NCBI RefSeq assembly: GCF_013167455.1
Contig: NZ_CP038328.1
Length of the DNA: 64,000 nt
Reading direction: 5' to 3' (one strand)
Source: Escherichia coli O157:H7
GTDB lineage: Bacteria; Pseudomonadota; Gammaproteobacteria; Enterobacterales; Enterobacteriaceae
The position numbers are program-made. Shown here piece by piece: positions 54,401 through 57,400 of the stretch. Every line of letters begins with the position of its first letter. Positions within the stretch are counted from its first letter, which is position 1.

Positions 54401-57400
54401 TCTGGCTGGTCCATTGATGGCGATGGTTACCACCATGTTGGGGGCAATATGACAGGTTTAAAAATGGCGAAAGTCGGTCTGCGGGAACAGAACCGACTTT
54501 CAGGTGCAAATCGTAACACACTCATTGCGGGAGGAATTATGGCAAACACTGCTGAGATATTCAATTTTCCTGTGCCGGATGCGGCACAAAAGGAGCCGCG
54601 CGTGGCAGATCTCGATGATGGTTATACGCGCATTGCAAATGAGTTGCTGGAAGCTGTAATGCTGGCCGGATTAACACAGCACCAGCTTCTGGTCTTCCTG
54701 GCTGTCATGCGCAAAACATATGGCTTTAATAAAAAACTGGATTGGGTGAGCAACGAGCAACTTTCCGAGTTGACCGGGATATTGCCGCACAAGTGTTCTG
54801 CTGCAAAAAGTGTTCTGGTAAAGCGTGGGATTTTTATTCAGAGCGGGCGGAATATAGGCATTAATAATGTGGTCAGTGAATGGTCAACATTACCCGAATC
54901 AGGTAAGAAAAATAAAGTTTACCTGAAAGAGGTAAATTTACCTGAATCAGGTAAGAAAAGTTTACCCAAATCAGGTAAAGGCACTTACCCGAATCAGGTA
55001 AACACAAAAGACAAACTAACAAAAGACAATATAAAACCTTATTCGTCCGAGAATTCTGGCGAATCCTCTGACCTGCCAGAAAACGACCTTCCTGTGGTGA
55101 AAGCGGATGCTGCGATTCAGAACGGCAGCAAGTGGGGGACAGCAGAAGACCTGACCGCCGCAGAGTGGATGTTTGACATGGTGAAGACCATCGCGCCATC
55201 AGCCAGAAAACCGAATTTTGCAGGGTGGGCTAACGATATCCGTCTGATGCGTGAACGTGATGGACGTAACCACCGCGACATGTGTGTACTGTTCCGCTGG
55301 GCCTGCCAGGACAACTTCTGGTCCGGTAACGTGCTGAGTCCGGCCAAACTCCGCGACAAGTGGACCCAGCTCGAAATCAACCGAAACAAGCAACAGGCTG
55401 GCGTGACAGCCGGCAAACCAAAACTCGACCTGACGAACACTGACTGGATTTACGGGGTGGATTTATGAAAAACATCGCCGCACAGATGGTTAACTTTGAC
55501 CGTGAGCAGATGCGTCGGATCGCCAACAACATGCCGGAACAGTACGACGAAAAGCCGCAGGTACAGCAGGTAGCGCAGATAATCAACGGTGTATTCAGCC
55601 AGTTACTGGCAACTTTCCCGGCGAGCCTGGCTAATCGTGACCAGAACGAACTGAACGAAATCCGCCGCCAGTGGGTTCTGGCTTTCCGGGAAAACGGGAT
55701 CACCACGATGGAACAGGTGAGCGCCGGAATGCGTGTTGCCCGTCGGCAGAATAGACCATTTCTGCCATCACCCGGGCAGTTTGTTGCATGGTGCCGGGAA
55801 GAAGCATCCGTTAACGCCGGGCTGCCAAACGTCAGCGAGCTGGTTGATATGGTTTACGAGTATTGCCGGAAGCGTGGCCTGTATCCGGATGCAGAGTCTT
55901 ATCCGTGGAAATCGAACGCGCATTACTGGTTGGTTACCAACCTGTACCAGAACATGCGGGCCAATGCGCTGACTGACGCGGAATTACGGCGCAAGGCTGC
56001 CGATGAACTGACCTGTATGACAGCGCGAATTAACCGTGGTGAGACGATACCTGAACCAGTAAAACAACTTCCTGTTATGGGCGGTAGACCTCTAAATCGT
56101 GCACAGGCTCTGGCGAAGATCGCAGAAATCAAAGCTAAGTTTGGGCTGAAAGGAGCAAGTGTATGACGGGCAAAGAAAGATTCTTCGTTACTTGAAGAAA
56201 TACAGTGTTTATTGTTCTTTTGAGATGTTGCGAAAACAGGAATTACCACGGTAAACATTTTGTAGCTGACCCATGCATTGATGAAATATTGTGGGTATTT
56301 AATAGAGCATAATTATCAAGTTGCGTAAGATGTGGAGTAATGGTATGGGCGGTGTTAGCACCGCCTTTAATTAAAGCTCAGAAAGCTGTGATAATATTTT
56401 TTCTGGAGTGGTTTCGTTGGAAATGCTAAATAATACAGCACCTTTGACTGATTCATCTCTCATTTCAATTTCACATGAATTATGGTTGTATGAGATTGCA
56501 TAATTTTTTAATGTTCTTTCGCTTTGCCACCACACCATATTTGCAAGACTTCCGTTATACGTTCTTATCTCGATTGATCCGGGCAGGGCTTTCCAGATAA
56601 CACCTCCTAGCAATGTAAGAGCGGCTGCACCAACATTTTTTGCATGATGGTTAGAACGTTCCATTACCCCTTCAGCATAACGATGAAGAATCTCTATGTC
56701 AGTCGCTTTGATAGTCATGTTATTTCCATGTAATTGCTGTGTGAAACGTAGTGTTAGTTAGGTGTTAGCAGAATATAGCATCAAAGTCGAAACCGGTAGA
56801 AAAAATATTGGTGATTATTTCGCTGCATTTGGAACTGGAACAACAATGATTATTAGCATGATTGCTTTTTCCAGTCATAAGAATGAGTCGTGTTAATTTT
56901 TTCTATTCAATAGGAAATTATCATGTCATCAGAATATGAACAACTACGGTGACTTCTGCGCTAAACGGGGACGTTTATGCGCACATACAATCCAAACTCT
57001 CTTCTCCCTCCACAGATGCAGAAATACACCTGCGATTTTTTGCATTCGGTGTTTTTGGCAGCCAAGAACAGGGAGTCTCTGTTTGTCTGGCGGCTAAAGG
57101 TGATATGGAAATCGTGATGTCTTAGCCTAAAGTAGTTGCAACAGTTGGAGCGATTATGGTGGTAGTAGTGATCATCGCGCCCCCCATATGCAAGGGTTGA
57201 CGACATTATTTATCCGGCGCTATATTCTGTGCGTTGCCGCAAAATCGGCACACGGGATTGGCGTCCCGGACATCAAAACGACGCATAACCGCGTTCGCGG
57301 TTTTTTTATGCGCAGTGCACGTCTACACAAAAATTATGGTGGGCTGTGTGAGGGCTTCTTCGGAAGCGCCGGATTTCGTTTTGACCGGTTACGCCAACCT

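Follow-up and report, generated by a model that had tools for sequence, protein, structure and literature searches.

The window analysed here, a 64,000-nucleotide stretch of the Escherichia coli O157:H7 contig NZ_CP038328.1, contains a lambdoid prophage whose early-right region carries a small gene on the minus strand (Table 1). Its product is annotated in RefSeq as 'hypothetical protein' (WP_000152742.1). It is the sole minus-strand gene from the cro-like gene to Q. The plus-strand genes before it are cro-like, YdaT-like, O and P, which form a lambdoid early-right operon, and those beyond it are ant-like, a HEPN pair, ybcN, ninE, ybcO, rusA, ylcG and Q. The gene has a GC content of 38.5%, compared with 35-41% for the island around it and 49-57% for the O/P flanks. 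These results agree with the sequence-only reading of the locus, which had described an AT-rich minus-strand ORF inside a rightward block. Within the window the gene is monocistronic; P is convergent to it, and the isrK/C4-ant module is divergent.

Table 1. Features in and around the Vch_cass14-family gene, with coordinates in the window
Feature	Coordinates	Strand	Remarks
SIR2_2-domain gene	51143-52750	-	535 aa; 27-30% GC
XRE/S24 repressor gene	52857-53585	-	242 aa
O	54449-55468	+	
P	55465-56166	+	
ren remnant	56163-56195	+	ATG overlaps P stop (ATGA); MTGKE, then unrelated sequence and stop
AT-rich inserted island carrying the Vch_cass14 gene, replacing ren	56177-56947		gap in phage homology; GC 35-41%
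GC-rich hairpin GGCGGTG-TTAG-CACCGCC	56349-56366		7-8 bp stem, 4-nt loop, 4 nt past stop of the gene
Vch_cass14-family (PF18315) protein-coding gene	56371-56718	-	115 aa, 348 bp, ATG start
Shine-Dalgarno-like GGAA	56724-56727	-	5 nt before ATG; sequence reading
Candidate extended -10 promoter element TGCTATATT	56772-56780	-	~55 nt before start; prediction, sequence reading
P1 ImmI / Gifsy IsrK-like antirepressor module	57197-58079	+	divergent from the Vch_cass14 gene
Promoter-like TTGACG-18-TATATT	57197-57226	+	antirepressor module
isrK	57235-57307	+	Rfam 64.1 bits vs gathering score 50
C4 antisense RNA	57332-57419	+	Rfam 82.5 bits vs gathering score 45
Bro-N + P22AR_C (ant-like) gene	57471-58079	+	after isrK and C4 RNAs
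HEPN pair	58379-59175	+	AT-rich; 138-aa HEPN protein gene overlaps gene of 133-aa protein without family match

The reading frame is a real protein-coding gene under selection. The Met that opens it also opens its homologues, in which GGAA, GGGGA or AGGA occupies the position of the Shine-Dalgarno-like sequence. A profile search of 1.84 billion representative sequences returned 548 clusters of relatives at 50% identity, nearly all of them stand-alone proteins of ~113 residues. Fusions are few and uninformative: one is to Clp_N and the others have no Pfam partner. Loci were scanned with alignment A1, since the alignment of the whole family (A2) proved too heterogeneous for this purpose. Between the E. 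coli and Citrobacter copies, pN is 0.155 and pS is 0.80, with synonymous sites saturated, and the Citrobacter copies show 1-5% synonymous differences among themselves and zero amino-acid change. The many relatives, the low pN against a saturated pS and the silent-only differences in Citrobacter place the gene far beyond chance.

The island that carries the gene has displaced ren. In a megablast search of 50,697 phage records, this part of the window matched only at 55900-56176 and from ~56947-56957 onward (153 records). The first match covers the end of P and the first 13 nt of a gene annotated as ren in the phage records. Its start overlaps the P stop (ATGACGGGCAAAGAA), and the five ren codons kept there (MTGKE), which we take to be the N-terminus of lambda Ren, mark the left junction of the insert. 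Since phage homology stops 13 nt into ren and resumes at ~56947, the ~770 bp in between represent a replacement of ren. The site is the one that ren occupies in lambda, directly after P. In contrast, the new gene has no sequence relationship to lambda ren, lies on the opposite strand and differs in composition. Lambda ren itself is an accessory gene related to exclusion, allowing escape from Rex. In a sister E. coli prophage (L041) the same slot holds a ren pseudogene and a VasI/TagO-like gene, followed by the same HEPN pair, and therefore the slot is variable and its modules are separable. The gene had been called a moron from the sequence alone, and this assignment stands: it separates genes that are direct neighbours in related phages, its composition is unlike that of its flanks, L041 has alternative content in the slot, and opposite-strand homologues recur in prophages.

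A 140-nt segment upstream of the E. coli gene (56907-57047) is 71% identical to a segment located downstream of the Citrobacter gene (6663-6789 in L007/L008). This placement on opposite sides implies rearrangement around a bare ORF. The DNA homology between the E. coli copy and other prophage copies is limited to the ORF, except for a short upstream stretch with TGCTATATT. In the other prophages the stretch belongs to the 5' portion of a divergent holE-like gene, and E. coli therefore retains a holE-like 5' remnant upstream of the gene. The protein encoded by a 44-aa ORF there (56762-56896) is not significantly similar to the holE-like neighbour found beside homologues, although the DNA aligns. 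We also considered an integron cassette and rejected it. An attC site is an imperfect palindrome of about 57-141 bp. Here the stop is followed only by an 18-nt hairpin; inverted repeats of greater length are absent from the flanks of the gene, and no attC-like repeat was found.

The hairpin past the stop folds significantly on both strands, with -13.6 kcal/mol as minus-strand RNA (z -3.2 against shuffled sequences) and -19.5 kcal/mol as plus-strand RNA (z -4.0). The sequence-only reading had noticed it, and had added that A/T runs flank it and that it could terminate transcription from either direction. The hairpin does not have A/T runs on both sides, and termination in either direction is not supported in that form. 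The A/T run TTTAATTAAA is on the gene-proximal side alone, in the stretch that separates the hairpin from the gene, and gives rightward RNA a weak U-tract (tail UUUAAUU). The tail on the minus strand is CAUACCAU, and the gene's own transcript, which is followed by CAUACCAUUACUCC, has no U-tract. As the T-run serves rightward transcripts only, the hairpin is not a convincing two-way terminator; a terminator scan left it below threshold and uncalled on both strands. It probably forms the 3' end or a stabiliser of the moron mRNA, a barrier to read-through from P, or both. Non-homologous GC hairpins are located at the same post-stop position in diverged prophage homologues (L006/L007, L057, L059, L060 and L062), and the one in L059 is textbook bidirectional (AAAGGCGGC...GCCGCCTTT). 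Because unrelated hairpins occupy the same place, a post-stop hairpin is a conserved feature of the moron unit.

Upstream of the start, the candidate extended -10 element is shared with Citrobacter, L057 and L059. In these prophages it falls inside the 5' coding end of the divergent holE-like gene, and its conservation is therefore confounded. A scan found 4 promoter-like sites where 5.8 were expected, which is not above chance. We also observed a 10-nt word, GGTGTTAGCA, as a direct repeat that brackets the gene, with one copy ~45 nt upstream of the start (56761-56770) and the other in the post-stop hairpin (56351-56360). The copies are 410 nt apart and may be due to chance.

Among 5,426 complete E. 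coli genomes, 180 carry the gene, always as a single chromosomal copy of at least 99.7% identity. The carriers include O26:H11 11368, O103, O111, O157:H7 and some non-EHEC strains. The copies differ in map position and in the immunity region beside them, and the same block of P, Vch_cass14 gene, Bro/Ant gene, HEPN pair and ybcN was seen in all five contexts inspected. This block has spread recently in E. coli. The near-identity of the 180 copies provides no within-species selection signal, the flanking remnants (ren, the holE-like 5' end and the rearranged segment) indicate decay, and promoter-like sites are no more frequent than chance predicts, all of which could fit silent hitch-hiking cargo, such as AT-rich DNA that is silenced by H-NS and kept through the recent spread of the block. 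However, the frame is intact in all 180 genomes, purifying selection between genera is strong, and the positions of the start, the Shine-Dalgarno-like sequence and the post-stop hairpin are kept across diverged prophages. We consider silent cargo very unlikely.

Contrary to the initial impression that the protein matches nothing, profile and structure searches identified its family. It matches Pfam PF18315 (Vch_cass14) with 71.7 bits against a gathering threshold of 26.7 (residues 12-104 on profile positions 2-92 of 97), and the structure 3IMO in the PDB with an E value of 1.3e-17. The E. coli protein is thus a new member of a known, functionally uncharacterised family. Its single match in PHROGs, phrog_5959, has no function assigned. 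No NCBIfam model matches it, PADLOC (2023) contains no family at E <= 1, tblastn found no copy in 50,697 deposited phage genomes, and Foldseek against BFVD found no relative below E 1e-3.

3IMO is the Vch_cass14 protein, encoded by an integron cassette of Vibrio cholerae O139 Arg3 (Sureshan et al., 2013; PMC3548836). The cassette was recovered by cassette-PCR, and the structure came from a structural-genomics effort (PMC3548836). The protein is a homodimer in the crystal structure and in SEC, formed through helical faces of two subunits that are two-layer alpha+beta sandwiches (PMC3548836). Each subunit has a ~15-Å hydrophobic tunnel that holds an unidentified linear aliphatic molecule, and at the tunnel mouth Tyr14, Arg21 and Asn60 bind acetate and water; an enzyme, a sequestering protein and a carrier were proposed by the depositors (PMC3548836). 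Literature searches on 3IMO, Vch_cass14, PF18315 and WP_000152742 found this 2013 structure paper only, with no phenotype or function reported.

The E. coli protein shares the two-layer sandwich of 3IMO, with the order beta1-alpha1-alpha2-beta2..beta6-alpha3. Twelve of the 20 pocket residues of 3IMO are identical and six are conservatively replaced, and the three mouth residues are all identical. Of the 115 columns, H25, G93, G38, N60, Y14, Y77, V29, A26, H79, H24 and R21 show the strongest conservation across 90 diverse relatives. Since pocket residues rank among the most conserved columns, the pocket and its polar mouth constitute the functional site. The two proteins also differ. The E. coli protein has a 2-residue insertion after W63. 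The strongly basic sheet surface of 3IMO is not a family feature; the pI of the E. coli protein is 6.1 (mildly acidic) and the family median is 6.8. The carriers differ as well, a prophage moron with its own putative signals in E. coli and an attC-flanked cassette for 3IMO.

The pocket also suggests a different function. A linear aliphatic ligand and acetate were found in this conserved pocket in the 3IMO crystal (PMC3548836), and the invariant Tyr/Arg/Asn/His cluster resembles a head-group or catalytic site. The protein could be a lysogenic-conversion factor outside phage conflict, that is, a binder of fatty-acid or lipid-like small molecules or an enzyme that alters host physiology or stress tolerance. 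The loci L010, L015 and L036, in which no defence genes are near the family member, are consistent with this possibility. It seems to us somewhat unlikely.

Enterobacterial prophages of at least four further kinds also carry a homologue on the opposite strand. In Citrobacter prophages (L006-L009) the gene is opposed to replication, PerC and DUF977 genes on one side and to DinI, RusA and Q on the other. In L057 and L059 it lies beside NinB, NinG and the theta (holE)-like gene, and L058, L060 and L061 are further examples. In the Serratia prophage L033 it occupies the early-left arm, with int on one side and the repressor on the other. The mode of carriage is similar throughout, as a single gene in the prophages and as a cassette gene in the V. 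cholerae integron.

Outside these prophages, family members are located near defence genes. In a qualitative survey of ~25 loci, at least eight independent architectures have AbiU, SduA, SoFic, GmrSD_N, PDC-S31, HEPN_AbiV or HNH within two genes. The closest non-prophage relative, with 67% identity to the E. coli protein and 39% GC, is found in Serratia marcescens (L002-L005, 4206-6348), where it begins 34 nt after a gene for a 586-aa AbiU/AIPR protein (PADLOC 6e-53). The S. marcescens genome has a GC content of about 59%, well above that of the homologue. Other family members adjoin Shedu SduA (1.7e-163), a GmrSD_N / HEC-05 gene, SoFic-like Fic genes, PDC-S31 / DUF2971 (two occurrences) or HEPN_AbiV, and one has an HNH protein upstream. 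Tyrosine recombinases overlap family members by 4 nt, and family members are found in islands bearing integrases or transposases. The sequence-only guess of exclusion, defence or anti-defence gains circumstantial support from this adjacency to defence genes; on the other side, no PADLOC model matches the protein and no phenotype has been published.

Some of these arrangements could indicate a partner protein instead. In L013 the family gene overlaps by 4 nt a downstream gene that is PD-(D/E)xK-like by eye only, with no Pfam or PADLOC match, and in L011 the gap to the homologue of that downstream gene is 107 nt. In Sorangium an MtlR-like protein with an RNDAAH motif is encoded on the same strand with a 53-nt gap. 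This tight same-strand pairing with variable downstream genes, the position 34 nt after AbiU in Serratia, and the gene order of a small dimer upstream, which mirrors type II antitoxin-toxin pairs, suggest a protein that neutralises (as an antitoxin would), senses or regulates effectors of the nuclease or HEPN type. On this reading, the orphan copy in E. coli would modulate a toxin, either resident or incoming, in an anti-addiction or anti-defence role. No adjacent co-oriented partner gene, as expected for a type II toxin-antitoxin system, is found within the window, and the pairing is seen only in other genomes. We regard a partner role, the main rival to a protective factor, as unlikely for the E. 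coli protein.

A parallel to such pairing is MNT-HEPN, in which MNT takes the type II antitoxin position. In six alphaproteobacterial loci (L016 and L018-L022, most at ~8001-8342) the Vch_cass14 gene is 3 nt upstream of a gene for a 164-aa all-alpha protein with a weak HEPN-like fold. Unlike MNT, the Vch_cass14 protein has no nucleotidyltransferase fold or motif, and it has no partner in the window. Among the six pairs, the Vch_cass14 proteins are 88-96% identical and the 164-aa proteins 65-90%, and a SoFic-like Fic gene follows the pair in four loci.

The HEPN pair of the E. coli prophage was considered as an obligate partner and rejected, as E. coli L041 has the pair but lacks the gene, and the gene occurs without HEPN in Citrobacter and Serratia prophages. 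Copies of the pair with at least 99% identity are found in 189 E. coli genomes, usually together with the Vch_cass14 gene. The 138-aa HEPN protein matches Pfam HEPN at 3e-06 and PADLOC PDC-M28A at 1.8e-07.

Further loci of note lie elsewhere in the same prophage. The SIR2_2-domain gene is directly downstream of and co-oriented with the repressor gene, the position of rexAB in lambda. Its product matches the PADLOC candidate PDC-S25 over its full length (E 2e-235) and ThsA more weakly. The antirepressor module additionally has a match to Rfam c4-a1b1 at 40.6 bits, under the gathering score.

Combining these data, we propose that the gene is an autonomous moron that has displaced ren in a DLP12/lambda-like prophage, and that its most likely role is in phage-host or mobile-element conflict, as a single-gene factor that protects the lysogen. 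This proposal is tentative, though in our judgement quite possible. The gene would be an autonomous cargo transcription unit in the place of ren. Its product is a cytosolic alpha+beta sandwich, probably a homodimer. The ~15-Å hydrophobic tunnel, with Tyr14, Arg21 and Asn60 at its mouth and the equally conserved His24/His25, Tyr77 and His79 probably near it, may accommodate an amphipathic ligand whose head is anionic and whose tail is aliphatic. As the gene opposes the lytic operons and has its own hairpin, it is probably driven by its own promoter in the lysogen, and convergent transcription from pR probably silences it during lytic growth. The stand-alone protein could protect the lysogen against superinfecting phages. 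Solo carriage, an orientation independent of the lytic program, the retained hairpin, the defence neighbours and the presence of the SIR2/PDC-S25 gene and the HEPN pair in the same prophage all fit a role in conflict. Several results speak against it: the protein matches no PADLOC or NCBIfam model and has no relative in the phage genomes or BFVD, the promoter evidence is weak, the hairpin offers the gene's transcript no U-tract, and the E. coli copies are nearly identical within a block that spread recently. To our knowledge, there is also no precedent for a hydrophobic ligand pocket among the known defence mechanisms.

The gene resembles classical lambdoid morons and prophage single-gene defences (lambda rexAB, sieB, bor and lom) in its patchy presence, deviant GC content, apparent 3' hairpin and lytic-independent orientation. 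Other comparators are the single-gene defences of prophage hotspots (Rousset et al., 2022; PMC9122126) and Tab (PMC10884400). The protein has no homology to any of these. In V. cholerae, 16 single-gene anti-phage systems were found in integron cassettes (Darracq et al., 2024; bioRxiv 10.1101/2024.07.02.601686). They are small stand-alone proteins, many without known domains, and the type member of the Vch_cass14 family is also encoded by such a cassette; the family is not reported among the 16 systems. A broader possibility, which we consider rather doubtful, is that PF18315 as a whole is an unrecognised single-protein anti-phage or phage-sensing family that moves among cassettes, defence islands and moron slots and acts via its amphipathic-ligand tunnel, a mechanism that is not known from any described defence system.

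If the E. coli protein is not a defence or exclusion factor, the gene would be an ordinary hypothetical moron. In either case, an orphan family with a solved structure (3IMO) gains a tractable setting, a 348-bp gene in prophages of EHEC O26, O103, O111 and O157. Because the prophage also holds the SIR2/PDC-S25 and HEPN pair loci, the slots at P-nin and beside the repressor look like hotspots for cargo in this phage family. With a defence or exclusion function, the gene would count as a very small system of one gene that works by binding a ligand, and integron cassettes, defence islands and lambdoid moron slots would be connected as parts of a single cargo pool.
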